DNA of 64,000 nucleotides from Myxococcales bacterium (lineage in GTDB: Bacteria; Myxococcota_A; Polyangia; Polyangiales; DASUME01), in assembly GCA_047601445.1 (NCBI GenBank), contig JASGJH010000001.1:7744001-7808000 (forward strand), given 5' to 3'. A program made the translations under genes and the position numbers. Under the pieces are notes generated by a model. The model searched no databases. It was not told where the DNA came from and saw only the letters and a list, made by a program, of their open reading frames with translations. Of the stretch, positions 1-19,556 are shown piece by piece. How positions within the stretch are numbered: position 1 is the first letter of the stretch; each line of letters begins with the position of its first letter.

Positions 1-264
1 CTGCGAGAAATTACAGAGTCGGGGACAGTGGTCTGCGCGCGTAGTGCGATCCCGGTCCGAGCGGTGCAAGGGCGTGCGCGACGCCTAGCCTCTTCGAGCT
101 TCGACCCCTAACGAGGACGAGTAAGGTGCAGCGCGCGAGCGCGCAATGAGGCCCAGTCCCCCCGTTGGGGAGCTGCACGAGTTACCCAACTGATCAGCAA
201 AAGCCAGCGCCTTGGCCCACGGGGCGATCGACATGGCCGGCGGAGCGATTGGTTCGACCACGCG

Positions 265-1614
265 TCAGAGCTTGGTCTTCATGGTGACGAACTCCTCGGC
301 TGCGGTCGGGTGGATTCCGACCGTGCTGTCGAAGTCCGCCTTGGTGGCTCCGAGCTTCATGGCCACCGCGAAACCTTGCACGATCTCGCCGGCGTGATCG
401 CCAATCATGTGCAGTCCCACCACGCGCTGGCTCTCGGCATCCACCAGGAGCTTCATCAGCGTGCGCTTCTCGCGGCGCGTCAGGGCGTGCTTGAGAGCGC
501 GGAAGTTGCTCTTGTAGACATCGACGCGGGCATAGCGCGCGCGCGCCTCGGCCTCGCTGAGTCCCACCGTGCCGACGTTGGGATGGCTAAAGACCGCGCT
601 GGGGACATTTTCGTAGTCCACGCGGGTAGGGGTGCCCTGGAATAGCGTACGCGCGAGGGCCGAGGCTTCGGCGATGGCCACCGGCGTGAGGGCTCGACGA
701 TCGGTCACGTCGCCCACCGCGTAGACATGGTCCGCCGAGGTCTTCGAATAGGCGTCGACGCAAATGGCGCCGCGGGCCCCGAGCTGCACGTTCAGCCGCT
801 CGAGTCCGAAACCCTGGCTGCGCGGCACGCGTCCGGTGGCGAACAACACCTGGTCGGCGAGCAGGAGCTCTCCTCCGTTGAGCGTGACGACGACGTCGGT
901 GCCGTCTTTGTGCAGCCTACTTACCGTGCGCTTCGCATGGACGCGCACGCCGTCGCGGCTCAGCTCTGCCGTGAGGTGCGAGCGCATGTCTTCGTCGAAG
1001 CCGCGTAGCACCAGCTCTTCGCGCAGCACCAGATCGACCTGTGCGCCGAGCCCCGCGAAGATGCCGGCGAACTCCACGGCGATGTAGCCGCCGCCCACGA
1101 TGGTGATGCGCTCGGGCATGCTCTTGAGGGCGAACGCTTGATCCGAGCTGATGCCGAGCTCGTGTCCGGGGATCTCGGGGATAAAGGGCACTCCACCGGT
1201 GGCGACCAGGATGGTGCGCGCGCTCAAGCGCTGATCACCCACCAACACGTCGTGGCCGCCGAGCAGCTCGGCACGTGCCTGATAGAGCGTGACCCCGGCC
1301 TTCTCGAGCAGCTGGCGGTAGATCGCGTTGAGGCGCAGGATCTCCAGGTCCATGTTGTCGACGAGCGTACGAAACGAGTGCTCGCTGCCTGAGCTGGACC
1401 AGCCGAAGCCCGCAGCGTCCTGCAGGTCGCGGCCGAGCTCGGAGGCGTAGGCCAACAGCTTCTTCGGGATGCACCCCACGTTGACGCAGGTGCCGCCCAG
1501 ACGGTTGTACTCGGCCAGCGCCACCTTGGCGCCGAACTCCGCGGCCATGCGTGCTGCACGCACGCCGCCCGAACCGCCGCCGATCACCAGGAGGTCGTAG
1601 TCGTGGCTTTGCAT
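265..1614 (-). CDS. gor: Glutathione-disulfide reductase
   Basis: FAD-binding GGGSGG, redox motif GGTCVNVGCIPKK, NADPH-binding GGGYIAVE, C-terminal HPTAAEE dimer motif. Confidence 0.93.
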   Translation of the reverse strand: MQSHDYDLLVIGGGSGGVRAARMAAEFGAKVALAEYNRLGGTCVNVGCIPKKLLAYASELGRDLQDAAGFGWSSSGSEHSFRTLVDNMDLEILRLNAIYRQLLEKAGVTLYQARAELLGGHDVLVGDQRLSARTILVATGGVPFIPEIPGHELGISSDQAFALKSMPERITIVGGGYIAVEFAGIFAGLGAQVDLVLREELVLRGFDEDMRSHLTAELSRDGVRVHAKRTVSRLHKDGTDVVVTLNGGELLLADQVLFATGRVPRSQGFGLERLNVQLGARGAICVDAYSKTSADHVYAVGDVTDRRALTPVAIAEASALARTLFQGTPTRVDYENVPSAVFSHPNVGTVGLSEAEARARYARVDVYKSNFRALKHALTRREKRTLMKLLVDAESQRVVGLHMIGDHAGEIVQGFAVAMKLGATKADFDSTVGIHPTAAEEFVTMKTKL

Positions 1615-1623
1615 CCGGGAAAT

Positions 1624-3462
1624 TTAGCCGATTAGCGTGAGCAAGCCCGAGCCGTCGATGGCCGGCTCGAAGACGCCCCCCACCGCGAGCCCGCTCGGCG
1701 TGCGCTTGAGCTCCACCATCAGCGAGACCGCCTTCAACACGGCGTCGGCTCCGCCTGCTCGTTCCAGGGCGATGAGCGCGTCCTTGGCCGAGCGCTGCTC
1801 GAAGCTCACCAGGCTTCCCTCGTGGTGCAACGAGAGCTTGCTCAGCAGCGTGGGAAGTTCGCTCTCGCGCGGCGTGTGGATCAACAGGCGCTCCGGGCGG
1901 AAGTGCCGCACCCGGTCGAGCAATGTCTCGATGTCCACCGTGCCCAACCGCAGGCACACCGACGAGCGCTCGCCCACCGCGATCTCCGGAGAGCGCTCGA
2001 ACAGTGCTACGCGCTCCTCGGCGTCGCACGCGTGCAGCGCGCCCGAGACGAGGCGGGCCAGTTCGCCGCTGCCTGGTCCCACGAACCAGACCTGGCGCTT
2101 GTTGCGCACGGCTTCCTGGATCGCACTCGCATGGTCGTTGGTGAGTAGACCGCTCTGGGCCAGCTCCGAGAGTGATTTGAGCTGGGCCGGGCGCCGCTGC
2201 ACCGACAGCACGGGTCCCTCGCTGGTGGCCGCCTTGAGCACGGCCACCACATGCAGACCGTTGGGCAGGGAGAGCTCCACGCTGTCCGGGAGACTTCCGA
2301 CGAGCCCGCCTTGGGCGCACAAGCGGCGCAGGCACGTGAGCACGGCCTGGGGCGCCGAGAAGACCACGGACTCGGGGCTCAGACCCTGGCCGCGGTCGGC
2401 GCGGATGCGGTCGAAGCGCTCCACCACGATGTGAAACACGTGGGCGTCGGCCAGCAAGCTGTCGATGGGTCCGAGGCCCACCGCCTCGTGCAGAGCCGCC
2501 TTGCCCAGGCCCAGGCGATCGCGGAAACGCGTGGGTTGTTCGTTCGCGAGCTCGGCGAGCTTGTTGTGGATCAAGCGCTCGGCCTTTTGCCAGCGTCGCT
2601 CGTCCACGAACGAGCTCGGATCGGCGTCGTCGAGATCGAACTCGCGGCCGATCCGCAGCATGAGCAAGCGCAGGTCGCTCTGTCCGCCCGGGCTCGGCGC
2701 GCCCGGAGGCAACGCTACGCGCGCAGGAGGCGGGGTCTGACGGCGCGGGGCAGGGCCACCGAGCGAAGTTGGAGCCAGGACGCGCGACACAGGCGAGCCA
2801 TCGGCGAGCACGCCCTCCTGGGGCGTAGACGGTCCCTCGATGCCCTCGGCGGGCGGGCGCTCGCTGACGGTGTCCAGACCACCGATGACCGGGGGCATGC
2901 TCGGCGCGGTGCGCGACGGAGGCATCACGGATGGCGGTGGCGGGGCGCTCGTGTGGGGCCCAAGGGGGGCCGACATGCTCGGCGAATTGCCCCGCAGCAC
3001 CAGCGGGATGTCGTCCATGCCGGGGCGGGCCTCCACGATGGGCTCGGGGGCCCGGCTCGGCAGCGGCGGCACGGGCGAATGACCGGAGATGGGCGCGGGG
3101 CCACCGAGCGGCAGGTCCTGCCGCGACACAGGCGGACGCATGGAACCCGAGGCACTCATGTCGCCCTCGAGCGTCAGCACGAAGTCGCCGATGTAGATCT
3201 TGTCACCCTCTTTGACGACGAGCGGAGAGGTGATCTTGCGGCCGTTGACGTAGGTGCCGTTGGTGCTCTTGAGGTCCACCACGATGAAGCGGTTGTCCTT
3301 GAGCACGATGCGCGAGTGGCGCTTGGATACATTGCCCTTGGGCAGGACCACATCGTTGCCGGGGACTCGACCGATGGTGACTTCAGGCTCGCCGAAGGAG
3401 AGGCGCTTCTGGGCACCGGTTTTCTCGGTGATCACGACGGTGAACATGGGCCCGCGCATCAT
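1624..3462 (-). CDS. FHA domain + Pro-rich linker + degenerate CpaF/TadA-like (VirB11 family) ATPase domain
   Basis: FHA motifs IGR, VSKRH, DLKSTNGTYVNG; C-terminal half follows the CpaF pattern (EAVGLGPIDSLLAD, ERVALFE, RPERLLI) but the Walker A lysine is missing. Confidence 0.8.
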   Translation of the reverse strand: MMRGPMFTVVITEKTGAQKRLSFGEPEVTIGRVPGNDVVLPKGNVSKRHSRIVLKDNRFIVVDLKSTNGTYVNGRKITSPLVVKEGDKIYIGDFVLTLEGDMSASGSMRPPVSRQDLPLGGPAPISGHSPVPPLPSRAPEPIVEARPGMDDIPLVLRGNSPSMSAPLGPHTSAPPPPSVMPPSRTAPSMPPVIGGLDTVSERPPAEGIEGPSTPQEGVLADGSPVSRVLAPTSLGGPAPRRQTPPPARVALPPGAPSPGGQSDLRLLMLRIGREFDLDDADPSSFVDERRWQKAERLIHNKLAELANEQPTRFRDRLGLGKAALHEAVGLGPIDSLLADAHVFHIVVERFDRIRADRGQGLSPESVVFSAPQAVLTCLRRLCAQGGLVGSLPDSVELSLPNGLHVVAVLKAATSEGPVLSVQRRPAQLKSLSELAQSGLLTNDHASAIQEAVRNKRQVWFVGPGSGELARLVSGALHACDAEERVALFERSPEIAVGERSSVCLRLGTVDIETLLDRVRHFRPERLLIHTPRESELPTLLSKLSLHHEGSLVSFEQRSAKDALIALERAGGADAVLKAVSLMVELKRTPSGLAVGGVFEPAIDGSGLLTLIG

Positions 3463-3500
3463 ACATGCGGCAGCGGGCCCCGGGCTATCACCATGTCACC

Positions 3501-3612
3501 GGGCAGGTCACGCGACCTTCCCCCGTCGCCGCCAAGCCGTGCCAGGGGTTGACTCAGGGCCCACCCCATTGACTCAGGGTCCACCCTACCGGGCGCGGTT
3601 CGCTTCGCTCAC
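3501..3612 (+). repeat. Dispersed REP-like repeat, copy A (contains internal tandem TTGACTCAGGGYCCACCC x2)
   Basis: Starts with hairpin GGGCAGGTCACGCGACCTTCCC and ends GGTTCGCTTCGCTCAC; similar to 15854-15932 and 18196-18313. Confidence 0.7.
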
Positions 3613-6488
3613 TGTTCCAGGCGCAAACCGGTCGGCAGGGACTCGCCGAACACGCGGCCTCGGTCGGCCTCGCTCAGCTCGCCCCCCTCGCGAACTAGTC
3701 GCACCCAGGTTTCGTTGCCCTGCACACGGGCCAGTGCCGAGGCTGCACGCTCGCGCAGGGGGGGTGAAAGGTCCCGGGCCCGGTCGTGCGTGAGGCGCGC
3801 TAGCTGGGCCACCGCGAACGCGCTTTGTTCCACGCTGGCCAGGTCGAGACTCAGGGCTCGCTCCAGCCAGCGACTGGCCACGTCCGTGGGCACCGTGGTG
3901 TGGGCGCTGCCATGCAGAGGTGCGCGTGCCCCCAGGCGACCCACGCTCCACCAGATGGACCCAACGGAGATTTCACCCTTGCCCAGGCGGGCCAGGAGCC
4001 AATCGCCCACCTGTACTTTTCGAGCCGCAGGCACACGCTCGAGCGCACCCGCGAGGCGCACCATGTCCTCGAGGCCGAGGGCACGCGGACCCTTGGGGCG
4101 GGGCTTCGGGCGGGGGCCCTGGGGCTCCAGGTAGTACGCGAGGTCGTCGAGCAAACGCAGCTGTTGCTCGTCCGCGAGGCCGCCCGCGATGCGCCGCCAC
4201 ATGACCCACCATTGGCTCCAGATCTGGGGATCGGGCGAGAACTGCAGTCCTTCGCCATAGAGCGCCCAGAGCTGTTCGACCCGGAAATCGTCCAGCGGAT
4301 AGCCGTAGCCGGGCCGCAGGGTGTACCCCGTGAGGTTGAGCCACAAACGTTCGTGATCGGCCGAACGCCGCCGCCGCTTGGCTCCGGCCAACAGGGCTCC
4401 GAAGAGCTCACGCAGGAGGGCCGTATCCCAGCCGTCGCGCTCGCCGAGGATGCGCTCGAGGTCGTTGCGCAGGGTCTTGATCTTTTTGCCCTCGAGCTCC
4501 TTGTTGGACTTGCCGAAGTAGCTCTGGATCAGGGCCGTCGCCTGGGCGAAACGCGGGTGCAGTTGAGTGACTCGCTGCACGGCAGGGCGCTCGCTCAGGC
4601 GGCCCTCGGGCGCGTAGGAGTCGCGCGAGGCTTCGCGCAGGGCGAACTCGAGCTTGTAGCGTCGATTGGGGTCGTCGACGGCCACCGAGCTCATTTCCAG
4701 CGTGCCCACTTCGGTGAGGCCCGTGTGCAGCTCCACGCGTAGCTCGTTGCTGTCGCCGGGCTTGGCCTCCAGCACCGCGGCGATTTCGGGCAACTCATGG
4801 AAGCTGTCATCGAGGCGCACCAGCTCGCCTGGACGATGGGTGCTGTCCGCGGTGCTGGTGAAGAGGCGAAAGCGCACGGGCTGACCCACGCGCAGCAAGA
4901 ACGTGCGGCCCTTGAGCGTGAGCTCTTCGCCCTCTTCCGCACCGCGCGGCAACACGCAGAGTCCCGTGCCGCCCTCGGCTCCACCCTCGACCAGCAAGTA
5001 GTAGCTGCGCGGTGAGCCGCCGCCGATGCGTAGCCCGACGCCGCGACGGGCGAGACCGTAGGCGACGGCTCCGCGCGCCACCGCCAATTCGGGCTCGCGG
5101 TTGTCGAGCTCCGTGAGCGGGGCGCCGCGCAGCCCGGCGAGCACCTGCGCCAGGCGCTCCTTGAGGCTCGTCGCGCGGAACACGCCGCCGTTGAACAGCA
5201 CTGCGTCCGGCATCACGCGTGCGGGCTCGGCTTGGGCCTCCTCGAGCGAGACACCGAGCGCTTCGGCGGCCACCGCGCGGTGGCGCTCGAGGAACGCGGC
5301 GATGTGCCGCGTGATGCCCGGATCGGCCACGAAGGGCAGGCCGAACTCCACCAGGCCCGTGCGACGCAGCTCGGGCCGGTCGCCGCCCTGCACGCGCGGA
5401 AAGAAGCCGTCGACGATGAGCTCGGCCACGCGTTCGCGCGTGAGGCTGGTGGACTTGGTGCCGCCGATCAGTTTGGAGCCACTGCCGAGCACGCTGAGCG
5501 TGGCCTGAGCCGGAGCCTGCTCGCTGAGCAAGAGCTCCTTGGCCGCGCGGCTCTGCTCCACCAGCTGGGTAAAGCGTGCTGGCGGAAGGCGCCCGTCGGC
5601 GCCCGCGAGGCCCGCTTCGCTGACGCGTGCCAGCGTGAGGTCCATGTTGTCGCCGCCGAGCATCAGGTGGTCGCCCACCGCGATGCGCGTGAGGCGCGGG
5701 CCGCTCTCGCGCAGCTCCACGTGAATGAGCGTGAGATCCGTGGTGCCGCCGCCGACGTCGACCACGAGCGCCAGACGCACGCCCTGCGCCGCCAGGTCTT
5801 CGGCCAGCGTGTCGCGATGGCGGTCGAGCCAGTCGTAGAACGCCGCCTGAGGTTCCTCCAGCAAGCGCAGCTTGGGCAGACCTGCGCGCTGGGCCGCTTC
5901 GAGCGTGAGCGCGCGCGCGGCCTCGTCGAACGAAGCGGGCACCGTCAGTACCACTTCCTGGGCCGACAAGGGATGCTTGGGGTGTGCGTCGTCCCAGCTC
6001 TTGCGCACGTGGGCCAAATAGCTCGCGCTGGCGTCGATAGGGGACACCTTGGCGACCCCCTCGGCGGCGCCCCACGGTAAGATGGCCGCGCGTCGATCGA
6101 CCGCTGCGTGACACAGCCAGCTCTTGGCGCTCGCCACCAGGCGTCCCGGGACTTTGCTGCCCAGGTTCTGCGCCAGCCGACCCACCACACCGGCGGGCAG
6201 TCGCGACAGAGCAGCTGAGCCCGCTGCTTGCTCGCGCGCGAGATCCTCGGCGCTCAGTTCGCCCTCCGCGGCGTGGTAGCGGAACGAGGGCAAGAGCGGC
6301 TCGGCCGCCACTTCGCCGGGCGCCACCAGCTGCGGCACATGGAAGACCTCGATTCGCGGCCTGGTCTGTTCGGTGGCTTCGCCCCCTGGTGCGTCATGGG
6401 CCCGCAGGGTGTCCACCACGCCGACGACGGTATGGGTGGTTCCGAGATCGATGCCTACGATGTAACGCGCGCGCTTTTCACTGCTCAT
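3609..6488 (-). CDS. Hsp70-family protein with C-terminal DUF3731-type alpha-helical domain
   Basis: GIDLGTT, TVPASFD, EEPQAA, VDVGGGTTD, LGGDNMD, LFNGGVF; C-terminal WLNLTGYTLRPGYGYPLDDFR and FGESLPTGL motifs. Confidence 0.88.
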   Translation of the reverse strand: MSSEKRARYIVGIDLGTTHTVVGVVDTLRAHDAPGGEATEQTRPRIEVFHVPQLVAPGEVAAEPLLPSFRYHAAEGELSAEDLAREQAAGSAALSRLPAGVVGRLAQNLGSKVPGRLVASAKSWLCHAAVDRRAAILPWGAAEGVAKVSPIDASASYLAHVRKSWDDAHPKHPLSAQEVVLTVPASFDEAARALTLEAAQRAGLPKLRLLEEPQAAFYDWLDRHRDTLAEDLAAQGVRLALVVDVGGGTTDLTLIHVELRESGPRLTRIAVGDHLMLGGDNMDLTLARVSEAGLAGADGRLPPARFTQLVEQSRAAKELLLSEQAPAQATLSVLGSGSKLIGGTKSTSLTRERVAELIVDGFFPRVQGGDRPELRRTGLVEFGLPFVADPGITRHIAAFLERHRAVAAEALGVSLEEAQAEPARVMPDAVLFNGGVFRATSLKERLAQVLAGLRGAPLTELDNREPELAVARGAVAYGLARRGVGLRIGGGSPRSYYLLVEGGAEGGTGLCVLPRGAEEGEELTLKGRTFLLRVGQPVRFRLFTSTADSTHRPGELVRLDDSFHELPEIAAVLEAKPGDSNELRVELHTGLTEVGTLEMSSVAVDDPNRRYKLEFALREASRDSYAPEGRLSERPAVQRVTQLHPRFAQATALIQSYFGKSNKELEGKKIKTLRNDLERILGERDGWDTALLRELFGALLAGAKRRRRSADHERLWLNLTGYTLRPGYGYPLDDFRVEQLWALYGEGLQFSPDPQIWSQWWVMWRRIAGGLADEQQLRLLDDLAYYLEPQGPRPKPRPKGPRALGLEDMVRLAGALERVPAARKVQVGDWLLARLGKGEISVGSIWWSVGRLGARAPLHGSAHTTVPTDVASRWLERALSLDLASVEQSAFAVAQLARLTHDRARDLSPPLRERAASALARVQGNETWVRLVREGGELSEADRGRVFGESLPTGLRLEQ

Positions 6489-8302
6489 GATGTGGCTCGG
6501 GTATCGAGCTCCACTTTCCAGCGTGCCTGGCCGCTGCGCGAGACGGCCTGGAGTTCCAAGGTGCCGACTTCGCTGATGCCTGCCTGCAGCTGCACCGTGA
6601 CGACCTCTCCCGGCGTGTGTCCATCGGCCGGCAGCATGGCCTCGACTTCCGGCAGCTCGACGAGCTCTTCGCCGCTCCAGCGGTCGAGCAGGTCGCCCGC
6701 GCGGTCATCGCGTCGCACCGAAGAGCCGAAGAAGCGAAAGCGCACCGGCTCGCCCACGACCAGGCCGAACTCGGCGCTCGGCATCTCTGCCTGCGTGCCT
6801 TCTTCGAGCCCGAACGGTGCCACGCACAGAGCCGAGAGTGGTGGCGGCATGCCCGGCACGGCTGGCATCGCGCTCTCCACGCCGACGTAGTAGGCCTGCG
6901 CGCTGCCGCCGCGGATACGGATGCCCTGACCCGCGCGCACGTACCCGTAGTAAGCCGCGCCGCGCGCCACCGCGAGGTCGAGGTCCGCGCCCGACAGCAC
7001 GCGTACCTCGGGCGCGCCGCTGCTGGCGAGCCAGCGGTCGAGCACCTTCACCACCCGTGCTTGCAACAGGGGCGACTTGAACACGCCGCCGTTGAACAAG
7101 AGGGCCGTGGGCTGCGCGAAGCCGTGATCGTTCTGGCCCAGCGCGTTCGCCTGGCGCGCCAGGAACGCTGCCAGGTGACGCGTGATGCCGGCGTCTTGAG
7201 CATAGGGAAGGCCGAGCTGCGTAAGCGCGCCGCGGGCGCGGCTCTGCGGGCGCGCCGAGGCCTCTACTTCGGGAAAGAAGCCCTCGAGCAGGATGCGCGT
7301 GAGGTCATCGCGCGTGAGCTCGCACTTGAGGGAGCCGCCGATCAGCTTGGAGCCGCGCCCCGGGATGACCACGGGGGCCGAGGTCTCGTCCGCGAACGTC
7401 AGCAGGCGCTCCTTGGCCGCGCGCGCCGCCTGCGTGAGCGTGGCTAGCTGGACCGGATCGAGCGAGTGTCCCTCCTGCTCGAGCACCACCTTGAGGTGAT
7501 ACGCGAGGGCCAGATCCATGTTGTCGCCACCGAGCAGAATATGCTCGCCCACCGCCAGGCGCTCGAGCGCCAGCTCCCCGTCCTGCTCGCGCACGGCGAT
7601 CAGGGAAAAGTCGCTGGTGCCGCCGCCCACGTCGACCACCAGGATCACGTCGCCGACCCGTACCTGCTCGCGCCAGGCGCCTTCGGTATTCGAGAGCCAG
7701 CTGTAGAGCGCCGCCTGGGGCTCTTCCAGCAGCACCGCGTGCCCGAGGCCCGCCCTGCGCGCCGCCTCCGCGGTCAGCTCGCGAGCCGAGGGATCGAACG
7801 AGGCTGGCACCGTGATGGTGAGGGCTTGCTCGGACAGCGGCGCGTCCGGGTTCTCCGCGTCCCAGGCGTTGCGCAGGTGCTCGAGGTAGTGCGTGCTGGC
7901 ATCGAGCGGCGAGAGCTTGGGAATTTCGGCCGCCGAGCCGGGCGGCAGAATGGCCGCGTGACGATCCACGGCCGCGTGACCAAGCCAGCTCTTGGCGCTC
8001 GACACGAGTCGCGCCGCGCTCTTGGTGCCGAGCGCGCGCGCCGCTTCGCCGACCACGAAGCCCGACGGGAAACCTGTCCAGGGCAAGGTCAGTGCGTCCG
8101 GCGCCAGCTCGCTCGGGTGTGGCAGATAGAGGAAAGACGGCAGCAGGGCTTGGCGCTCCACTTGCCCTGGCGCCACCACCTGCGCAATGCCCAGGCCGCT
8201 CTGCGCCACCTGCTCGCCCTCCGAGAGCTCGAGATCGATGCTCGAGAGCGCGCAGTGCGTGGTGCCCAGGTCGATGCCTACCGAATGCACGGGCGCACTC
8301 AC
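6485..8302 (-). CDS. Hsp70-family protein (short paralogue)
   Basis: Same Hsp70 ATPase motifs; likely GTG start at 8302 overlapping the upstream stop (GTGA); stop overlaps the next ATG. Confidence 0.88.
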   Translation of the reverse strand: MSAPVHSVGIDLGTTHCALSSIDLELSEGEQVAQSGLGIAQVVAPGQVERQALLPSFLYLPHPSELAPDALTLPWTGFPSGFVVGEAARALGTKSAARLVSSAKSWLGHAAVDRHAAILPPGSAAEIPKLSPLDASTHYLEHLRNAWDAENPDAPLSEQALTITVPASFDPSARELTAEAARRAGLGHAVLLEEPQAALYSWLSNTEGAWREQVRVGDVILVVDVGGGTSDFSLIAVREQDGELALERLAVGEHILLGGDNMDLALAYHLKVVLEQEGHSLDPVQLATLTQAARAAKERLLTFADETSAPVVIPGRGSKLIGGSLKCELTRDDLTRILLEGFFPEVEASARPQSRARGALTQLGLPYAQDAGITRHLAAFLARQANALGQNDHGFAQPTALLFNGGVFKSPLLQARVVKVLDRWLASSGAPEVRVLSGADLDLAVARGAAYYGYVRAGQGIRIRGGSAQAYYVGVESAMPAVPGMPPPLSALCVAPFGLEEGTQAEMPSAEFGLVVGEPVRFRFFGSSVRRDDRAGDLLDRWSGEELVELPEVEAMLPADGHTPGEVVTVQLQAGISEVGTLELQAVSRSGQARWKVELDTRATS

Positions 8303-8862
8303 AGCTCCACCTCCGCCGGGGCCAGCACTTTGAGGTCCGCGCCGTCGCTCAGCTGGGGGAGCTCGATGCGCTTCACGCGCCATCCCGCGTGGGTCAGCGT
8401 GCCCTGAAAGGGGGCCTCGCCCACCACGTTCCCGGTCAGGCGCACCTCGTTGGCGGAGAAGCCCTTGGGCACGCTCACCCGCGAGCCCTCGTTCTCACCG
8501 CGTACGCGCTCGAGCTCCAGGTGGTTCTTGAGCGCCTTGCGGACACTCTCGTGCACCACGCGTGCAGCGGCCCCGATCTCGGCGTCCGAGAAATTCGCGA
8601 CGTCTTCCTGCACGAAGTCGATCAAGCGACCCTCGCGCTGCAGGAGCCCCAGCAGCTGGAGCGCGCTGTCGGTGGGCGCCGAGCGCAACTTGGGCGCCTC
8701 GGGCTTGGGGGCGGCGACGGGAGTCGCGGGCGCTTGCGGCGCCGTCTCGCCGCTGCCGAGACGGGCCACCCGACCGGCGAAGGGCGCGTTGAACAGCACG
8801 CGGAAAAAGGCGGCGAAAGCCAGGCCGATGCGTGCGAAGAACGAGGGATCAGAGACGGTCAC
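8299..8862 (-). CDS. DUF2760-domain protein (putatively GrpE-like)
   Basis: ALQLLGLLQREGRLIDF, IGAAARVVH and VLAPAEVEL motifs; N-terminal hydrophobic segment; first gene of the Hsp70 operon. Confidence 0.82.
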   Translation of the reverse strand: MTVSDPSFFARIGLAFAAFFRVLFNAPFAGRVARLGSGETAPQAPATPVAAPKPEAPKLRSAPTDSALQLLGLLQREGRLIDFVQEDVANFSDAEIGAAARVVHESVRKALKNHLELERVRGENEGSRVSVPKGFSANEVRLTGNVVGEAPFQGTLTHAGWRVKRIELPQLSDGADLKVLAPAEVEL

Positions 8863-8914
8863 GGGGCACCTTTCGCGAGCTCCCGCGGACGGGGGCTGGT
8901 CGAGCAGCCTCGAA

Positions 8915-8954
8915 TTAGCACTCCGGGACCGCTTGGGGTGCCCGGGAGTGACAA
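8915..8954. promoter_or_regulatory. CIRCE-like inverted repeat with non-canonical 22-nt spacer
   Basis: TTAGCACTC (8915-8923), 22-nt spacer, GAGTGACAA (8946-8954); lies between the divergent Hsp70 operon and Smr gene. Confidence 0.35.
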
Positions 8955-9004
8955 AGGCGGCCGCGGGCCCGCGCGCCGGGGCGGGCCTGTGCTAGCAGAG
9001 GAGG

Positions 9005-9805
9005 GTGGGCAAGAAGAAGAAGCCGAGGGGCCCGCTGCCTCCCCCGTTCGGGAGCAGCATCGAGGACGCAGAGGAAGCCGAGCCCAAGCCGGTTCTGCCG
9101 CGTGCACCGGAGCGTCTCGCCTCGCCTTTCAAGCAAGCGCTGTCGGGTCTGAAGAAGGAACTCGACGAGCGCGCCAAGGCGGCACAAACCAAGCCCAAGG
9201 CACCCGTACCCCCACCCGTGGCACGGCCCATCAAGCGCGACAAGACGCTGCCCGAGGACGACGCCATGGCCCTGAGCCTCGCCATGCAGGGGGTCAAGCG
9301 ACTCGATGACAAGCAGGCCGGACGGGTCTCGGCCAACGCGCCCAAGTTCGCCAGTCGCACGGCCCAGGTGGTGCCGTTTGGGGAGAGCGCGGAGGATCAG
9401 GCCCGCGCCCGCCTGCAGGCCCTGGTGGCGCAGGACGTTCGCTTTCGCATCGAAGGCGACCGTGACTTCGTGAGCGGGTCACGCATCGACGCCGACGCGC
9501 GCGTGGTGCGTGAGCTGCGCCGGCGTACGCGCGCGGCGGAGACCCTCGACCTGCACGGCATGAATCAGCGCGAGAGTCGCGAGGCCGTGGTCAGCTTCAT
9601 CCGTCGCTGCCACACCAAGGGCATCGACATCGTATGCATCGTTCACGGCAAGGGCCAGCACAGCGAGGCGGGACTCGGTGTGCTGCGAGACACCGCGGTA
9701 AAGGCGCTTACGGAAACCGGTGCCGCTCCCCTGGTGCGAGCCTTCGTTACGGCGCCCGACGTGCTCGGCGGAGCCGGCGCGCTCTTGGTCGAGCTCAAGC
9801 GCTGA
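9005..9805 (+). CDS. Smr/MutS2-domain protein (putative endonuclease)
   Basis: LDLHG, IVHGKGQHS and GGAGALLV motifs; RBS GAGGAGG. Confidence 0.88.
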   Translation: MGKKKKPRGPLPPPFGSSIEDAEEAEPKPVLPRAPERLASPFKQALSGLKKELDERAKAAQTKPKAPVPPPVARPIKRDKTLPEDDAMALSLAMQGVKRLDDKQAGRVSANAPKFASRTAQVVPFGESAEDQARARLQALVAQDVRFRIEGDRDFVSGSRIDADARVVRELRRRTRAAETLDLHGMNQRESREAVVSFIRRCHTKGIDIVCIVHGKGQHSEAGLGVLRDTAVKALTETGAAPLVRAFVTAPDVLGGAGALLVELKR

Positions 9806-9864
9806 GCCTCACAGTCACCCCAGCGGTGTGAGCCATCCGGCACTGCTGACGGCCCTGCGAGACG

Positions 9865-10968
9865 TTGCGACCGATTCGTCTAGCCGGGCTCCTCTTCGCG
9901 CTCGTGTTGTTCAGCGCGCCCTGCGCTCTCGCCGATGGAGGTACGCCGGCGCCGCGCCTGCGGGAGCGCTTCGGCATGCGATTCAGCGCTTACCTCTCGC
10001 TGTTCGTGAGCAGCGATCAGACCGATCAACTCGGCTTCGATCGCTTCGGCTTGCTCGGCGACTTGAGCATGACCGTCAACCTGCTGCCCTGGCTCACCAC
10101 CGAGCTGGGCGGCACCGGCGGCAGCTTCCTCATCAAGAAGGGGGCCGAGTTCGTCACGTACCAGCTCCACGTCAAACCGAACGGCGGCCTGTTGGCGCCC
10201 ACGCTCGGCGTGCGCGTGCACGCACCCAATCGCCAGCTCTCGCCCTTCGTTGCCTTCAGCGCTGGGCCCGCGTTCACGGGCGAGCTCATCCGCCCGCTCC
10301 TGCAGGCGAGCTTCGGGCTCGACATCGCCGTGAGGCGTGGCGTGACCCTCGGGCCTTACTTCGGGTACGGTCGGGTGCTGCAGAAGAACGGTCCGGAGTA
10401 CACGACCGACGCCAGCTACTTCTCGGTGGGCATCACCATGGCCTATCGGCCTCTGCCCCCTCAGAAACCGCGCGTGGTGCGAACCCATTCCATCGAGCGC
10501 GTGGTGGAGCGCATCCACACCCACAGCGAGAGTCCGCCGCGTGAGCCCCCAGTCGATGACAAGGAGCTCGATCAGCTGCTCGATCAAGCGCTGCCCCCCG
10601 CGCGCACCGACCGCATGGAGCTGCTGGCGCCCGTGCTCTTCGCCTTCGACTCCGATCAGCTCGAGCCAGTGGGAGTCGCCATGCTCCACGAAGTCGCAAG
10701 CCTGCTCAAGCAGCGTCCCGACATCGAGCTCCTGGCCATTCTGGGCTTCGCTGACAAGCGTGGATCCAGCACTTACAACCTCGACCTCTCCACGCGGCGC
10801 GCCGAGCGTGTGCGCGCCTGGCTGATCGAACACGGCATCGAGGGACAGCGCCTCGAGGTTCAAACCCAGGGAGCCACGAACTTCGTCGAGGCCGGCGAGA
10901 GCGAGGCGGAGCACGAGCAGAACCGCCGCGTGATCTTCCGTGTGTTGCGCCTGAGGAGCTCTCCATGA
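9865..10968 (+). CDS. OmpA-family protein (N-terminal beta-barrel, C-terminal peptidoglycan-binding domain)
   Basis: Signal peptide; FAFDSD, GFADKRGSSTYNLDLSTRRA, NRRV motifs. Confidence 0.85.
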   Translation: MRPIRLAGLLFALVLFSAPCALADGGTPAPRLRERFGMRFSAYLSLFVSSDQTDQLGFDRFGLLGDLSMTVNLLPWLTTELGGTGGSFLIKKGAEFVTYQLHVKPNGGLLAPTLGVRVHAPNRQLSPFVAFSAGPAFTGELIRPLLQASFGLDIAVRRGVTLGPYFGYGRVLQKNGPEYTTDASYFSVGITMAYRPLPPQKPRVVRTHSIERVVERIHTHSESPPREPPVDDKELDQLLDQALPPARTDRMELLAPVLFAFDSDQLEPVGVAMLHEVASLLKQRPDIELLAILGFADKRGSSTYNLDLSTRRAERVRAWLIEHGIEGQRLEVQTQGATNFVEAGESEAEHEQNRRVIFRVLRLRSSP

Positions 10969-12089
10969 GTCTTACCCGAAGAGCACGCGCCCTGTGCGTC
11001 GCACTCGCGTTTGGCGCGCTGGGGGCGGATTGCCGCTTGGGCCGCCAGGTGGTGGACCAGCTGCCGACCAAAGAGATCCCGAGCTTTTGCGCGCCCAAGC
11101 CGTGCGAGCTCCCCTCTCCGCCCACCTTCGAGTTGCCCCAGTTCTTGGCGGCCACCTCGGTTTGCCCCGAGGATTCGTGCGCTCAAGTCGCGCCCGAGAG
11201 TGTGGTCGATGGGACTCAGCGGAACTCCGTACGGATCTCCTACGCCACACGAGATCCCATCGACGTCACACTCTCGGGCATCACGCTCTCCGACATGTCG
11301 CTCGAGCTGTCGGGGCCCGTGACCTTGCGCATCGTGGGCCAGAGCGTCCTGCTACGTACGCACATCACACTCACGCGCACGCCGGACGGTACGCCGCGTC
11401 TGTCGTTCGAGGAGTCCGAGCTGCACACGGTGACGATCGAAGATCAGGGCGCCAACGCCGGACTCGCTGCCGGCAGGGTCGAGCTCGTCCGCTGCACGCT
11501 CGACGCAATGCATGCCGCGGTGGAAGAACTCTCGCTGCACAGCTGTCAATCCAACGGCCTGAGCCTGAGGAACCTGTTCTTCGAGGCCGTGGACACCAAC
11601 ATCGCAAGCGCCGAGATGTCGTTCGAAGAGGCCTTCTTGGCTTCGGTCAAGGCAGTCAACGTACGGACTCGTGCGTGCGGCGACTTGACCACGGCCCTCA
11701 CCAGCTTCGTTGGCGACGCCTCGGAGATCGGGCCCTGTCAGAGCCTGCGTTTGCAGCGCAGCAGCGTGACTCATGGCCTTCTGGACGGCCCCGTGCACGG
11801 CGAGACCGCGATGGTAGAGAGCGTGCTGATCGGGAGCCGCGCGCCCACCAACCTGGACCTCTGGGAGGGCCTCGTGAATTCCAGTGTGTTCTGTGCGCAG
11901 GCGGGAGCGCTACGCATGGACAACAGCACCGCCGTGCGCTGCTCGAGTTGTGAAGGCGCGCCCGCTCTCTCCGCGTGCTTCCTCGCTGAGTTCCCCTCGC
12001 AGGACTTCGTGAATCCCTGTGAGCGGCTCCAGGCGCTCGAGCTCCTGTCGTGTCAGCCGCCATGGCCCATGGCCACCTATCCGAACTAG
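10965..12089 (+). CDS. Hypothetical exported/lipoprotein, Cys-rich, probably beta-rich
   Basis: ATGA overlap with ompA; hydrophobic N-terminus ending LGADC; many Cys residues. Confidence 0.6.
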   Translation: MSLTRRARALCVALAFGALGADCRLGRQVVDQLPTKEIPSFCAPKPCELPSPPTFELPQFLAATSVCPEDSCAQVAPESVVDGTQRNSVRISYATRDPIDVTLSGITLSDMSLELSGPVTLRIVGQSVLLRTHITLTRTPDGTPRLSFEESELHTVTIEDQGANAGLAAGRVELVRCTLDAMHAAVEELSLHSCQSNGLSLRNLFFEAVDTNIASAEMSFEEAFLASVKAVNVRTRACGDLTTALTSFVGDASEIGPCQSLRLQRSSVTHGLLDGPVHGETAMVESVLIGSRAPTNLDLWEGLVNSSVFCAQAGALRMDNSTAVRCSSCEGAPALSACFLAEFPSQDFVNPCERLQALELLSCQPPWPMATYPN

Positions 12090-12100
12090 GGCACCGCGCC

Positions 12101-13552
12101 CTAGCTCGCGTCGACACGTTCGTGGGCCGCGAGCGGCGCCGCGATCTGCTCGAGCGAGCGCTGTTCGGCTGCCACCGCGAGCTTGAAGGCCACCAGCGCT
12201 GCGGTGAGCATCAAGCCCGCTCCGAGCCCGTAGCCCAAGAACACCTCCGAACGACTGCCGCGATCGATCAAGAAGCCGAATAGCGCCGGCGCCGCGAGAC
12301 CGCCCATGGCCGTGCCGATGGAGTAGAACAGCGCGATCGCGCGTGCCCTGATCTCGAGCGGGAACAGCTCGCTCACCGTGAGGTAGGCCGAGCTCGCGGC
12401 TGCGGAGCCGAAGAAGAACACCACCGCCCAGGCCACCGTCTGCGTGGTCGCGTTCAACAGCCCTGCCTTGAACAGCCAGCCCGTCAGCAAAAGCAAGATG
12501 CCTGATGCCGCGTAGGTCGTGACGATCAAGGGCCTGCGTCCCACCGTGTCGAACATGCGTCCGAGCAGCAAAGGGCCCGTGAAGTTGGCGAGCGCGAACA
12601 CGATCAGCGAGTAGCCCACGTGCTCGGCCTCCACGCCGAAGAAGCGCGTCAGGATCAACGCGTAGGTAAAGAAGATGGCGTTGTAGAAGAAGGCCTGCGC
12701 CACCATCAACGTGAGCCCCAGCACCGCGCGCTCTCGGTAGCGCCCGAAGATCACGCGCAGCGCCTGCGCATAGCCCACCTTTTGACCCGGCCAGAGCGTG
12801 ATCCAGTGTTCCACCGGCGCCAGCTCGCCGCACGCCGCGCGTGCGCGCTCCTCGATGCCTTCCACCACCAGGCGGGCCTCGCTCTCTCTTCCGTGCAAGA
12901 TCAGCCAGCGCGGGCTCTCGGGCACGTAGTGGCGCACCAACGCGACCGCCACCGTGAGCACGGCGCCCGCGCCGAAGGCGAGACGCCAGCCCAGGGATTC
13001 TGGGACGATCTGCGGATCGAGCAGCACCACCGTGAGCACGGCGCCGAGCGCGGTGCCGAGCCAGTAGCTGCCGTTGATCGCGAGGTCCACGAAGCCGCGC
13101 ACGCGCGCCGGCAAGAGCTCGTCGATGGCCGAGTTGATGGCCGCGTACTCCCCACCGATGGCGGCCCCGGTGAGCAGCCGAAAACAAGCGAACGAATAGA
13201 AGTCCCACGACGCAGCCGTGAGGACGGTGGCGATCACGTACAGACCCAGCGTCACCAGGAACAGCCGCTTGCGTCCGAAGTGATCCGTGAGGTGTCCGAA
13301 CAGCAACGAGCCCGCGATGGCCCCGGTCAAATAGGCCGTGGCCGCGCCGCCGATCTGCGTGCTGGTCAGGCCCAGCGTGGTCGGTCGTTCGAGCACGCTG
13401 GCCACCGCGCTCACCATGGTGACCTCGAGCCCGTCGAGGACCCAGGTAATGCCCAGCGCGAGCACCACCAGCCAGTGGAAGCCGAACCACGGCAGGCGAT
13501 CGAGCCTGGTCGGCAGGTCCGTTTCGATGGCTGTGGCGCCCGCGCCAGTCAC
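12101..13552 (-). CDS. MFS transporter (sugar/metabolite porter-like)
   Basis: GHLTDHFGRKR, ELLPARVRG, PESPRWL, SELFPLEIRA motifs; about 12 hydrophobic segments. Confidence 0.9.
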   Translation of the reverse strand: MTGAGATAIETDLPTRLDRLPWFGFHWLVVLALGITWVLDGLEVTMVSAVASVLERPTTLGLTSTQIGGAATAYLTGAIAGSLLFGHLTDHFGRKRLFLVTLGLYVIATVLTAASWDFYSFACFRLLTGAAIGGEYAAINSAIDELLPARVRGFVDLAINGSYWLGTALGAVLTVVLLDPQIVPESLGWRLAFGAGAVLTVAVALVRHYVPESPRWLILHGRESEARLVVEGIEERARAACGELAPVEHWITLWPGQKVGYAQALRVIFGRYRERAVLGLTLMVAQAFFYNAIFFTYALILTRFFGVEAEHVGYSLIVFALANFTGPLLLGRMFDTVGRRPLIVTTYAASGILLLLTGWLFKAGLLNATTQTVAWAVVFFFGSAAASSAYLTVSELFPLEIRARAIALFYSIGTAMGGLAAPALFGFLIDRGSRSEVFLGYGLGAGLMLTAALVAFKLAVAAEQRSLEQIAAPLAAHERVDAS

Positions 13553-13881
13553 TAGCTGTTCATTCGCGGACTGCCGATACGAGCGCAGTGTTGGAGCTCT
13601 TGCAGCCGCTCATCGTCGATGCCGGGTACCCGTCGCCGGACGTCCTCCCAGCTGAGGAAGTGCCCGTACAAGGTCCGGTGCACCACGATGGCGCGGGCCT
13701 CGTACTCGCCGATGGATTCTATCTCCATGAGTTGTTCACGTGTCGCGTGGTTGAGGTCGATGCTTTGAGTGAGCGCCGCGTTGCCGTCTGCGCCGGGGGC
13801 CGTTTCGCCTTGCCATAGTGGACCGTGCCGTTTGCGGGACTGCTCCTGAGCATTGGCGCGATTTCTGTTCACGTTGTGCAT
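13552..13881 (-). CDS. Small helix-hairpin-helix (ComEA-like) DNA-binding protein
   Basis: IDLNHATREQLMEIESIG...ARAIV...G.F.SWEDV..VPGI pattern; ATG 13881 with AGGAG RBS. Confidence 0.75.
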   Translation of the reverse strand: MHNVNRNRANAQEQSRKRHGPLWQGETAPGADGNAALTQSIDLNHATREQLMEIESIGEYEARAIVVHRTLYGHFLSWEDVRRRVPGIDDERLQELQHCARIGSPRMNS

Positions 13882-14127
13882 CGCTACTCCTAGGTGATGT
13901 CCATCAACTAACGCATTCGTCCAGTCGAACCGCCGGGCTCCCCTCCTTGTTCTGGGCTGCGCACCGAATTGCGCCGGCCCCGCCCGCGATCCGCTGCAAT
14001 GCGTCAGAAGTAGGCACCGCACGAGCCCATGCTCGTATGTTCTTGCGGACCCGCGAGCGCCTCAAACGGGGGCGTTCCTTTGACGCAGTCCGGAAACTCG
14101 GGCGACGTCACGTCGGGATACGGGAGC

Positions 14128-14883
14128 TCAGTCGAGTGAGCCGTCGCCGGTGATCGCCACGAGAGCGCGCGCGATCGAACCATGATCCCGCACCAGATCG
14201 TGCGGCCGGGCCTCGTGGAGCAAGCGTCCTCGGCTCACCATCCAGACCCAGTCGGCGCTCTCCTCGACATGCTTGAAATCACTGCACACCACGACCGCCG
14301 CCCCGCCCTGGGACCGGTGCTCCGCGAGGGCGCGCCACAACGTCTCCTGGGCAGCCTCGTCGAGGCCCACGAACGGTTCGTCGAGCAACCACAGGAGGGG
14401 GCTGTGCAGCATGCTGAGTGCCACGTGCAGTCGTTGCTGCACGCCGGCGGTCTCCGACTCCACCAAATCGTCCAGGGATTCCACCAGGCCGAGCTGGCGG
14501 GCAACACGCTCGATACGCGGCGCTCGGTCGGCCTCGGGCAGCTTGGCGATCGCCGCGAATAGGCTCAGGTGATCGTGGACGCTGAGATCGGGCGCTAGCT
14601 CCGGTCGCTGCGCGCAATAGCCGATGTTGTGGGCCCGCGCTTCGTTACTCTGCCCTAGCGAGAGCCCGTAGCGTATCAGCCCGGCCACCGGCATCAGCCG
14701 CCCCGCCAGCAGGCGCAGCAGGTCACTCTTGCCAGCTCCCTTCGCCCCCAACAGCGCGTAGATTTGGCCCGGTTGCACGCGCAGGCTCACGCGGGCGAGC
14801 GGCGCGTGGTCTTCGCGTCCTGGCACGAGCCGGGTGCTCACCTCTTCGAGTGTCACCACGGGCTCTGTCTCTGGCAGGCTCAC
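14128..14883 (-). CDS. ABC transporter ATP-binding protein (degenerate signature)
   Basis: Walker A GAKGAGKS, Walker B LLDEPFVGLD; signature reads ETAGVQQR. Confidence 0.8.
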   Translation of the reverse strand: MSLPETEPVVTLEEVSTRLVPGREDHAPLARVSLRVQPGQIYALLGAKGAGKSDLLRLLAGRLMPVAGLIRYGLSLGQSNEARAHNIGYCAQRPELAPDLSVHDHLSLFAAIAKLPEADRAPRIERVARQLGLVESLDDLVESETAGVQQRLHVALSMLHSPLLWLLDEPFVGLDEAAQETLWRALAEHRSQGGAAVVVCSDFKHVEESADWVWMVSRGRLLHEARPHDLVRDHGSIARALVAITGDGSLD

Positions 14884-14993
14884 GCGCTTCCGTTCCCCCT
14901 GGCGGCTGAGCGTGCCATTGCGTCACCACTGCTGGCAAGCAGGCGCGCCCACTCGGAGTGGTCCGGATCCATTCGTGCTGCTAGCTTGGCACG

Positions 14994-15827: not shown

Positions 15828-15853
15828 CTGGGCGGATTCCCGCGAGCACACGC

Positions 15854-15932
15854 GTGAGCGTAGCGAACCTCGCTGTGGGGTGGGTCCCGACGCAGCTTTG
15901 CTGCGACGGGCAGGGAGGTCGCGTGACCTCCC
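15854..15932 (-). repeat. Dispersed REP-like repeat, copy B
   Basis: Minus strand: GGGAGGTCACGCGACCTCCC...GCAGCAAAGCTGC...CCCACCCCAC...AGGTTCGCTACGCTCAC; lies between convergent genes. Confidence 0.75.
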
Positions 15933-15939
15933 CGTTCAA

Positions 15940-18113: not shown

Positions 18114-18153
18114 AGCCGAGGGGCAGAAGGCAGTGCTTCTTTTGGCGATTCAT

Positions 18154-19554: not shown

Positions 19555-19556
19555 GC

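Follow-up and report, generated by a model that had tools for sequence, protein, structure and literature searches.

DnaK relies on a J-protein and on GrpE. HscA, which is dedicated to a client in Fe-S assembly, retains the linker and the lid, and the genes for its J-protein and its client adjoin its own. According to PMC8215388, dependence on GrpE is determined by two salt bridges, K55-E267 and R56-E264, and HscA, which has lost them, consequently releases ADP 700-fold faster and is GrpE-independent. In the fungal RAC-Ssb system, as described in PMC7083937, Zuo1 inserts an LP motif as a pseudo-substrate. Here we describe a cassette of three genes, encoding a DUF2760 protein and two Hsp70-family proteins (Hsp70-A and Hsp70-B), which is a real variant of the Hsp70 system, as yet unstudied in its mechanism. 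Our main reading, to which we assign a probability of roughly one half, is that the trio works as one Hsp70-type remodelling machine that is self-contained, driven by ATP and devoted to a specific client, with DUF2760 as the cofactor of Hsp70-A.

Within the window (the whole 64,000-nt stretch of DNA that was analysed, from a myxobacterium-like genome), the cassette lies on the minus strand in the order DUF2760 (8299..8862; GTG start, 187 aa; PF10816, E 8.8e-53), Hsp70-A (6485..8302; GTG start, 605 aa; PF00012, E 1.4e-15) and Hsp70-B (3609..6488; 959 aa; PF00012, E 2.5e-15), the last carrying DUF3731 (PF12531) at residues 709-957 (E 5.4e-93). An earlier note on this DNA had described the three genes as translationally coupled, and both overlaps are indeed read in the sequence: GTGA between DUF2760 and Hsp70-A (8299-8302), and ATGA between Hsp70-A and Hsp70-B (6485-6488). 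A Shine-Dalgarno-like GGAGGTG (within 8303..8316, minus strand), 5' of the GTG of Hsp70-A, lies inside the codons for the AEVEL tail of DUF2760 and, judging by this arrangement, represents translational coupling to Hsp70-A. Among 56 coupled loci, 49 have GAG as the first Glu codon of AEVEL (background 0.55), against 7 of 12 separated loci (background 0.68). Conservation of AEVEL purely as a ribosome site was considered and rejected, because the motif is present by pattern in 11 of the 12 separated loci and lies three residues earlier in the twelfth. No sigma-70 consensus promoter was found for the cassette, and no Rfam families were found in window positions 1-20000.

The earlier note had also proposed a dedicated three-part module, and a gene-neighbourhood survey found the trio co-occurring across genomes. 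Of 151 genomes sampled from the host phylum, DUF2760 and DUF3731 exceed their cut-offs in an identical set of 26. Of 301 Pseudomonadota genomes, 23 have DUF2760 and 22 have DUF3731, and the single genome with DUF2760 and without DUF3731 has its locus 2 kb from a contig end. The cassette, always present as one copy per genome, occurs in myxobacteria, Burkholderiales, Vibrio and other Gammaproteobacteria. Hsp70-A lies directly 3' of DUF2760 in 79 of 80 loci, the remaining locus ending at a contig edge, and the two genes share a 4-base overlap in 50 of 68 loci. Hsp70-B is non-adjacent in 16 of the 68 loci having room downstream (DUF3731 is found elsewhere in the genome for 13 of 15 genomes with a non-adjacent Hsp70-B), and thus the link between A and B is looser than that between DUF2760 and A. 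The three genes almost certainly constitute one functional module.

Hsp70-A is a paralogue of Hsp70-B along its whole length. The two are closer to each other than to DnaK, as had been noticed earlier, with 43% identity over 629 columns (E 3e-135) versus 25-36% in local matches to the genome's other eight Hsp70-family proteins. A quick tree unites A and B in a single clade (SH-aLRT 99) distant from the genome's other Hsp70s; the Hsp70-A sequences form a clade of their own (SH-aLRT 100), and loci fall into similar sets in the A and B subtrees. No GrpE or J-domain match occurs in the 64,000 nt of the window, which agrees with the reported absence of dnaJ and grpE there; the host genome outside it contains one GrpE and nine J-domain matches, and canonical DnaKs are present in the genome. 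The nine J-domain proteins could act in trans on the cassette Hsp70s. A J-protein dedicated to the cassette was rejected as a candidate: J-domains lie near it in 5 of 80 loci, four of these in related Competibacteraceae with PF12339+DnaJ (one confirmed), PF12339 occurs in 13 of the 23 DUF2760 genomes of the Pseudomonadota sample and also in 31 genomes without DUF2760, and it was not found in the host genome.

For the ATPase domains, residue statistics come from 69 Hsp70-A and 43 Hsp70-B sequences in DnaK numbering, which is provisional outside residues 109-280 (for example at D8, T11 and K70). The motifs GIDLGTT, EEPQAA, DVGGGT and GGDNMD, noticed earlier, are present in both proteins, and the equivalents of D8, T11, K70, P143, E171, D194, T199, D201, K270 and G341-G342 are invariant in both sets. 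Together with PF00012 matches above cut-off, the catalytic residues identify both proteins by sequence as members of the Hsp70 superfamily; among NCBIfam models, those for HscA score best, at values well short of the cut-off. The DnaK linker (VLLLD/DVLLLD) is absent, with GIRIRGG in Hsp70-A and GLRIGGG in Hsp70-B. The K55-E267 and R56-E264 cleft salt bridges of canonical DnaK are lost: the E267 equivalent is Arg in 69/69 A and 43/43 B, the K55 equivalent is Arg in 69/69 A and 33/43 B, the E264 equivalent is His, Tyr or Gln in A, and the R56 position is variable. The paralogues differ at the R167 equivalent, which is Thr, Val or Ile in A and Arg or Lys in 36/43 B, and at the D148 equivalent, which is Pro or Ala in A and Glu in 41/43 B. 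Around the ribose and adenine, D231N and E267R are invariant and S274 is mostly Leu, so the nucleotide cycle could differ from the one proposed below; R71S is a further invariant change around the ribose and base.

Hsp70-A consists of the ATPase domain and a beta-sandwich, after which it stops without an alpha-helical lid. In Hsp70-B, the ATPase domain is followed by a beta-sandwich (~490-620), a flexible linker and a solenoid (~645-950); the large helical domain noticed in it earlier is the predicted ~300-residue DUF3731 (PF12531) solenoid. A predicted model of Hsp70-B residues 485-959 (pLDDT 88.7) has the DnaK substrate-binding domain (SBD) as its best Foldseek match (E 8.9e-4), and VIA-align against BiP 418-530 gave Z 10.2 and rmsd 3.4 with 110 aligned. 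On this model the beta-sandwich of B is an Hsp70 SBD and, through sequence homology to B, so is that of A. Alignment of the SBD with hhalign against four sequences gave no significant homology, and the assignment therefore rests on the structure search. The DUF3731 model matches importin-beta (Z 15.3, rmsd 4.5, 274 aligned) and designed armadillo proteins (Z 13-14), and HspBP1/Sil1 were not among the best 50 matches of its fold search. DUF3731 is thus a predicted armadillo/HEAT alpha-solenoid in the position of the lid, a generic fold that is neutral as to function; a possible origin of its first helices from a lid received a non-significant hhalign probability of 1.7.

These proteins might instead not be chaperones at all, and serve as a scaffold or sensor with the actin/Hsp70 fold that is switched by nucleotide and whose Arg/Trp-rich solenoid binds nucleic acid or a phosphorylated ligand. 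The substitutions near the ribose and base (R71S, D231N, E267R and the Leu at S274) are consistent with such a role, as are the 17 Arg and 7 Trp among the 66 highly conserved solenoid residues and, by hand mapping, a Phe at the I438 position in 65/69 A and 42/43 B, which may narrow the peptide pocket. However, the beta-sandwich is kept in both paralogues at a conservation on par with that of the ATPase domain (0.78 vs 0.75 in A; 0.63 vs 0.68 in B), and the pathway from substrate to ATPase retains P143, R151, K70, G482 and L484. We consider this scaffold or sensor role unlikely.

DUF2760 comprises amphipathic N-terminal helices (8-36), a Pro/Ala linker, a conserved core (helices 64-114 and a small beta domain) and an extended tail, which carries a conserved L168-P169 and has APAEVEL as its final residues. 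Q75, R79, D82, F83, D93, R101, H104 and H158 are invariant across 150 aligned rows. In a separate count, 7,808 of 8,000 scored sequences were DUF2760 matches. The protein has no PF00226 J-domain match and no HPD motif, searches with its AlphaFold2 model (pLDDT 94.8, pTM 0.66) gave no clear fold match (best Z 5.5, rmsd 3.9, 56 aligned), and Atlas look-ups returned the DUF2760 and DUF3731 clusters alone.

The earlier note had cast DUF2760 as a membrane-associated partner of the Hsp70s. For Hsp70-A the partnership is weakly predicted: 1:1 complexes of A(4-603) with DUF2760(58-187) scored 0.58, versus 0.00 for the best of three controls, with at least 97% of contacts agreeing between runs and a partner pLDDT of at least 87. 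In a calibration made without user alignments, 116 of 157 solved complexes passed the mark, as did 2 of 215 mismatches; passes at 0.60 or below, the weak range into which the present score falls, comprised 18 of the 157 solved complexes and both false passes. The outcome is a binding score with no interface returned. Sequence searches turned up no solved relative of DUF2760, so that a pass by memorisation of a known structure is unlikely. Direct binding of DUF2760 to Hsp70-A is, on these models, probable. The membrane part of the claim is plausible and marginal, as the helix at the N-terminus is amphipathic and of borderline hydrophobicity, with a Kyte-Doolittle 19-residue maximum of 1.54 in the host protein and of at least 1.6 in 76 of 148 homologues; on sequence, we lean slightly towards DUF2760 being a membrane tether.

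Could DUF2760 be a cryptic, membrane-anchored nucleotide exchange factor of the GrpE type, and the trio a diverged DnaK-GrpE system? The order of helix, helix and small beta domain in its model resembles the GrpE head in outline (GrpE layout from PMC4753570), and the weak predicted binding to Hsp70-A would suit such a factor. Yet the profile test for GrpE was null, the hhalign score against 30 GrpEs (12.7) falling within the range of block-shuffled controls (13.8 +/- 2.1, n=100). DUF2760 has no PF01025 match, its longest modelled helix has 22 residues and is no long stalk, and the cleft salt bridges, which create the need for GrpE, are missing from the cassette Hsp70s, all of which leaves this identity improbable. 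GrpE itself acts as a homodimer, opening the nucleotide cleft of its Hsp70; it was not listed among the best 50 matches of either DUF2760 fold search.

In Myxococcus xanthus, MXAN_5321 (DUF2760), MXAN_5322 (Hsp70, 620 aa) and MXAN_5323 (Hsp70, 925 aa) make up the same cassette. Their transcripts are near-equimolar at ~70/70/60 FPKM, ~6% of dnaK, and show no dnaK-like heat induction (PMC8265645 supplement). For MXAN_5323, qPCR likewise found no heat induction, the gene failed to complement E. coli dnaK, and its deletion caused mild defects, namely less sporulation and peroxide sensitivity, with no growth defect at high temperature (PMC8265645). The sporulation and peroxide phenotypes are common to all five non-essential M. 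xanthus hsp70 deletions (PMC8265645) and are therefore unspecific. The earlier statement that the trio has no established function thus stands for mechanism, and needs amending in that the M. xanthus Hsp70-B orthologue has a published deletion phenotype. In Vibrio cholerae, VC1375-1373 is a candidate for the same cassette, based on synteny with Vibrio rumoiensis and a divergent CHASE-GGDEF gene rather than on sequence comparison; published reports list VC1373-1375 as an operon with a DnaK-related protein, repressed in biofilm, and describe activation of the VC1375 promoter by HapR. A literature search, which covered neither subscription papers nor bioRxiv supplements, found nothing on DUF2760 or DUF3731; published work on the cassette consists of side observations, none of which treats the trio as a system.

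Hsp70-A and Hsp70-B could also be co-chaperones of canonical DnaK, acting by Hsp110-like exchange or by boosting disaggregation through NBD-NBD contact and localised by DUF2760. Such a role has been proposed in general for bacterial DnaK derivatives (PMC13580251), and both the canonical DnaKs of the host genome and the peroxide sensitivity of the MXAN_5323 deletion would be compatible with it. However, the module invariably carries both of its paralogues, it lies beside dnaK or grpE in none of the 80 loci, and the M. xanthus data show neither heat co-induction with dnaK nor a high-temperature growth defect. We regard service to DnaK as doubtful, and still less expected than the preceding alternatives.

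The flanks of the cassette contain varied housekeeping, metabolic and signalling genes. When 3,116 ORFs flanking 80 loci were clustered, the recurring groups were large generic families or reflected synteny within genera, with no fourth conserved gene or client, no neighbour recurs across these loci that would point to a client, and no family recurs in a Pfam scan of 66 downstream ORFs. No defence family recurs among the clustered ORFs or in Pfam scans of the 66 downstream and 6 upstream ORFs, and phage records gave no match to the cassette. An anti-phage defence system is very improbable: the patchy distribution (26/151 and 23/301 genomes) and a weak similarity of the ATPase region to the PADLOC entry PDC-M61B (E 1.2e-5 and 0.0072) would fit one, but that similarity spans ~90 residues of generic ATPase fold, the cassette is single-copy with varied non-defence flanks, and only 11 of 72,556 plasmid records match it, 7 of them megabase replicons.

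We return to the reading of the trio as a remodelling machine. DUF2760 would bind Hsp70-A as a private cofactor, as weakly predicted, instead of the usual DnaJ/GrpE, and its amphipathic helix would hold Hsp70-A at the inner membrane. Both ATPases may release ADP rapidly without GrpE, as HscA does, and Hsp70-A, having lost the R167 and D148 equivalents, may make no use of ordinary J-proteins. Hsp70-A with DUF2760 could then be the activating or loading half, and Hsp70-B, which mostly keeps R167 and an acidic residue at 148, the working half, selecting its client or partner through the predicted armadillo-type solenoid that replaces the lid. Lidless substrate binding would be fast and transient. 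Direct contact between Hsp70-A and Hsp70-B, which the earlier note had suggested as a possible heterodimer, is somewhat favoured, and the machine likely serves a specific client rather than general stress refolding.

A more elaborate version is tentative and, as a whole, rather unlikely. DUF2760 would be a new class of co-chaperone, locking onto Hsp70-A, which has no lid, and anchoring it to the membrane; its LP/AEVEL tail would act as a pseudo-substrate, a convergent counterpart of Zuo1-Ssz1; the solenoid of Hsp70-B would grip Hsp70-A as a built-in, HspBP1-like exchange factor; and the whole would be an obligate two-ATPase relay, without J-protein or GrpE, serving a density- or development-controlled client.

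Should DUF2760 turn out to regulate the Hsp70s, a new class of co-chaperones would be defined, and a bacterial Hsp70 served by an armadillo solenoid would have its counterpart in a known eukaryotic design. The cassette offers a clean entry point, with three parts that are single-copy and always together, and an M. xanthus deletion mutant exists. What was annotated as function unknown can now be addressed as testable proposals: DUF2760 binding to A, GrpE-independent ADP release, and a division of labour between A and B.

Compared with DnaK-DnaJ-GrpE, the cassette shares the ATPase fold with all checked catalytic residues and the substrate-binding beta-sandwich, but consists of two paralogues in one operon, lacks the DVLLLD linker, the cleft salt bridges and any linked dnaJ or grpE, has no lid in A and a solenoid in B, and in M. 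xanthus shows neither heat induction nor, for MXAN_5323, complementation of dnaK. Like HspBP1/Fes1/Sil1, it ties an armadillo-type solenoid to an Hsp70 (PMC4753570); those are free-standing eukaryotic proteins, whereas DUF3731 forms part of a bacterial Hsp70 chain, and the structures it matches best are importins of a generic kind and armadillo proteins made by design. In HspBP1/Sil1 the concave side of the solenoid holds subdomain IIB of the Hsp70 and so releases ADP. HscA-HscB is likewise a specialised, non-heat-shock Hsp70 system without the K55-E267/R56-E264 latch (PMC8215388), but the cassette has a pair of ATPases and neither a J-domain nor a client gene linked to it. Unlike Zuo1, DUF2760 has no J-domain; Ssz1 does not hydrolyse ATP, whereas Hsp70-A keeps the catalytic residues; and RAC is ribosome-bound. 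By analogy with RAC-Ssb (Ssz1-Zuo1 plus Ssb; PMC7083937), the cassette nevertheless has a lidless, atypical Hsp70 with a candidate dedicated partner and a second Hsp70, and the LP motif of Zuo1 finds an analogue, with no homology claimed, in L168-P169 of the DUF2760 tail.

The three genes lie on the minus strand, and a reading of the window sequence confirmed them as ORFs joined by GTGA and ATGA overlaps. They encode a DUF2760 protein (187 aa, 8862-8299; Pfam PF10816), the shorter Hsp70-A (A; 605 aa from GTG, 8302-6485; PF00012) and Hsp70-B (B; 959 aa, 6488-3609; PF00012 and PF12531, or DUF3731). An ATG further upstream, given by the ORF lister as the start of A, is unsupported and would overlap DUF2760 by 85 bases. 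The trio has the same GC content as its flanks, and its only NCBIfam matches are to HscA and DnaK, all far under cut-off. In keeping with the earlier note, A and B are closer to each other (43% identity across 629 alignment columns) than to other Hsp70s of the host genome (25-36%, local hits). In a quick tree they group as a single clade (99), a long branch separating them from those other Hsp70s; A comes out as monophyletic (100), and B is not recovered as one clade. Besides canonical DnaKs, the host genome (9.5 Mb, one contig; nearest named homologues in Polyangiales) has nine J-domain matches and a single GrpE. Neither GrpE nor J-domain matches fall within the 64-kb window, where the earlier note likewise saw no dnaJ or grpE.

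A survey of gene neighbourhoods supports a dedicated three-gene system, a real and conserved module in co-occurrence, gene order and overlaps alike. DUF2760 and DUF3731 score above cut-offs in the identical 26 of 151 genomes of the host phylum (host counted), where they are adjacent in 19, 18 kb apart in one and on separate contigs in six. Among 301 Pseudomonadota genomes, which include a centre genome itself picked for carrying DUF2760, DUF2760 is present in 23 and DUF3731 in 22, adjacent in 18; in the lone exception, DUF2760 sits 2 kb from a contig end. Because related genomes are not independent, we give no P value for co-occurrence. Among the best 80 of at least 598 GTDB loci, A directly follows DUF2760 in 79, the remaining one stopping at a contig edge, and, of the 68 loci that leave 3 kb for it, 52 have B adjacent, as do 2 of the 12 shorter ones; one row of this set scored as having B elsewhere (locus L042) is an ordinary Hsp70. 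DUF3731 was found elsewhere in 13 of 15 genomes whose locus was without B. DUF2760 and A overlap by 4 bases in 50 of 68 loci. At this junction the AEVEL tail of DUF2760 (8303-8316, minus strand) is dual-coded, its codons forming the ribosome site of A; its GAG codon is enriched only at loci with coupled genes, and AEVEL is retained at the protein level where DUF2760 and A are separated.

No recurrent fourth gene was found around the cassette in these best 80 of at least 598 loci, which hold no GrpE and only five J-domain matches. A PF12339 J-protein was rejected as a dedicated partner, its distribution not tracking the cassette. One PF12339+DnaJ protein lies ~1.6 kb upstream of the cassette at L019:7706-8254, and related Competibacteraceae loci (L004, L006, L038) have similar J-domain matches, with no wider co-distribution. 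Two Bradyrhizobium plasmid records (H10, H11) match part of DUF2760 (query 81-187), and neither names an Hsp70 at the matched position.

In the confident DUF2760 model (pLDDT 94.8, pTM 0.66), a pair of N-terminal helices leads through a Pro/Ala linker to three more helices and a small beta domain, and the protein ends in an extended tail in which LP and APAEVEL are conserved. Its amphipathic N-terminal helix is a borderline case for a membrane span (Kyte-Doolittle 1.54 here; at least 1.6 in 76 of 148 homologues). Our starting idea was that DUF2760 is a cryptic GrpE, but it failed the GrpE profile test, and we now regard this as improbable. Complex prediction for A 4-603 with DUF2760 58-187 weakly supports an interaction, scoring 0.58 (runs 0.58, 0.55, 0.60) against 0.00 for the best of three controls, with contact agreement of at least 97% between runs and partner pLDDT of at least 87. 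Of 157 solved complexes, 116 reached the pass mark, as did 2 of 215 mismatches, but only 18 of those solved complexes and both mismatches did so at scores up to 0.60; these counts are only roughly valid with user-made alignments. Since gene coupling had already made binding likely, we consider that DUF2760 quite probably binds A directly. Residues 106-107 (8542-8547, minus strand), adjoining the invariant His104, are Ser-Val here and Gly-Cys in the family (G 142/150, C 131/150); a family metal site formed by this Cys, His104 and His158 is conceivable, the window copy being without the Cys.

Both Hsp70s are likely to be active ATPases, because the equivalents of DnaK D8, T11, K70, P143, R151, E171, D194, T199 and D201, as well as of G228-G229, K270 and G341-G342, show little or no variation across 69 A and 43 B sequences. 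DnaK numbering was taken from the alignment for 109-280, and outside that range follows the usual DnaK numbers. Family-wide changes from DnaK are R71S, Y145S, N170E, D231N, V218R and E267R, with S274 mostly Leu, and the linker reads GIRIRGG in A and GLRIGGG in B in place of VLLLD. R167 of DnaK touches both the J-domain HPD aspartate and the substrate-binding domain (SBD). Its equivalent is lost in A and is Arg/Lys in 36 of 43 B, and at the D148 position A has Pro or Ala and 41 of 43 B have Glu; judged from these alignments, the paralogues are asymmetric at both positions. Both salt bridges that latch the DnaK cleft are gone (E267R, K55R, R56 variable). According to the available part of PMC8215388, their absence accounts for the 700-fold faster ADP release of HscA and its GrpE independence.

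The C-terminal halves also bear out the earlier description: A stops after the beta-sandwich, and B adds a large helical DUF3731 domain, predicted to be an alpha-solenoid. In the model of B 485-959 (pLDDT 88.7), a beta-sandwich is followed by a disordered linker and then the solenoid. Foldseek hits to the sandwich are nearly all Hsp70 SBDs (best E 8.9e-4; against BiP, Z 10.2, rmsd 3.4, 110 aligned). The solenoid resembles importins and armadillo proteins (Z 15.3, rmsd 4.5, 274 aligned), although a Z of this size between repeat proteins reflects a common arrangement and says nothing on function. Of the 66 residues most conserved in the solenoid, 17 are Arg and 7 are Trp, as would fit a binding groove.

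DUF2760 and DUF3731 are absent from the main text of the literature searched, where the cassette, catalogued so far as two DUFs, is not studied as a system. The DUF2760-A contact predicted here is new, as are the loss of the cleft latch, the asymmetry between A and B and the assignment of DUF3731 to the armadillo type. Orthologues do appear under other names. As far as the available portions of Pan et al. 2021 (PMC8265645) extend, deletion of M. xanthus MXAN_5323 (925 aa) lowered sporulation and peroxide resistance, like other hsp70 deletions there, and left motility, predation and heat growth normal; the gene failed to complement E. coli dnaK and is cited from another study as up-regulated during development. 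The adjacent MXAN_5321 (DUF2760), 5322 and 5323 stand at ~70, 70 and 60 FPKM versus ~1,100 for dnaK, and after heat at ~81, 116 and 40 versus 6,000. The text calls MXAN_5323 an exception to 'unchanged or decreased', whereas its table has 5322 up and 5323 down; in Data Set S2, two heat-shock values for MXAN_5323 share trailing digits with untreated ones (59.8918148..., 39.8918148...), and this row needs caution. The paper's primers encode the same terminal peptides as B of locus L050, a record titled Comamonas sp. KCTC 72670, whose cassette sizes and terminal peptides match M. xanthus and whose flanking genes are shared with Archangium; this record may be mislabelled or come from a mixed genome. 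Pseudomonadota A and B nest among myxobacterial sequences, beside the window's lineage, in the quick tree, hinting at possible transfer from myxobacteria. In V. cholerae, the quorum regulator HapR activates the VC1375 promoter (PMC10328515, in part), and VC1373-1375, which by synteny may be the same genes, are in a list of in-biofilm-repressed genes (PMC9201469, in part). The accessible part of a 2026 review (PMC13580251) suggests Hsp110-like roles for DnaK derivatives generally and does not name the cassette.

Downstream of B by 147 bases, on the same strand, lies a gene (1624-3462) for a 612-aa fusion of FHA and TadA/CpaF-like ATPase domains. Its Walker A has no lysine (GPGSGELA), so the protein is possibly an inactive Tad-type ATPase. 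It has one copy in the host genome and, among the best 80 of at least 598 loci, only L001 and L002, the two closest from Polyangiales, have it beside the trio. Divergent and upstream, on the plus strand, are genes for a Smr-domain protein (9005-9805), an OmpA-domain protein (9865-10968; both by Pfam) and, overlapping the latter, a 374-aa protein with no Pfam matches (10965-12089).

We put the probability that the trio is a self-contained remodeller at about one half. DUF2760 would bind A and keep it near the membrane, A and B would both run their ATPase cycle without GrpE, and B would pick the client or partner via its solenoid. That the three proteins instead form a non-chaperone switch seems as doubtful as a cryptic GrpE, and that they are helpers of DnaK slightly more so. 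A defence system is very unlikely. As a self-contained remodeller, the trio would come closest in working to HscA, likewise a dedicated, unlatched Hsp70, and in layout it resembles the fungal Ssz1-Zuo1-Ssb triad, as described in the available part of PMC7083937; it belongs to neither of them, nor to the canonical DnaK systems.
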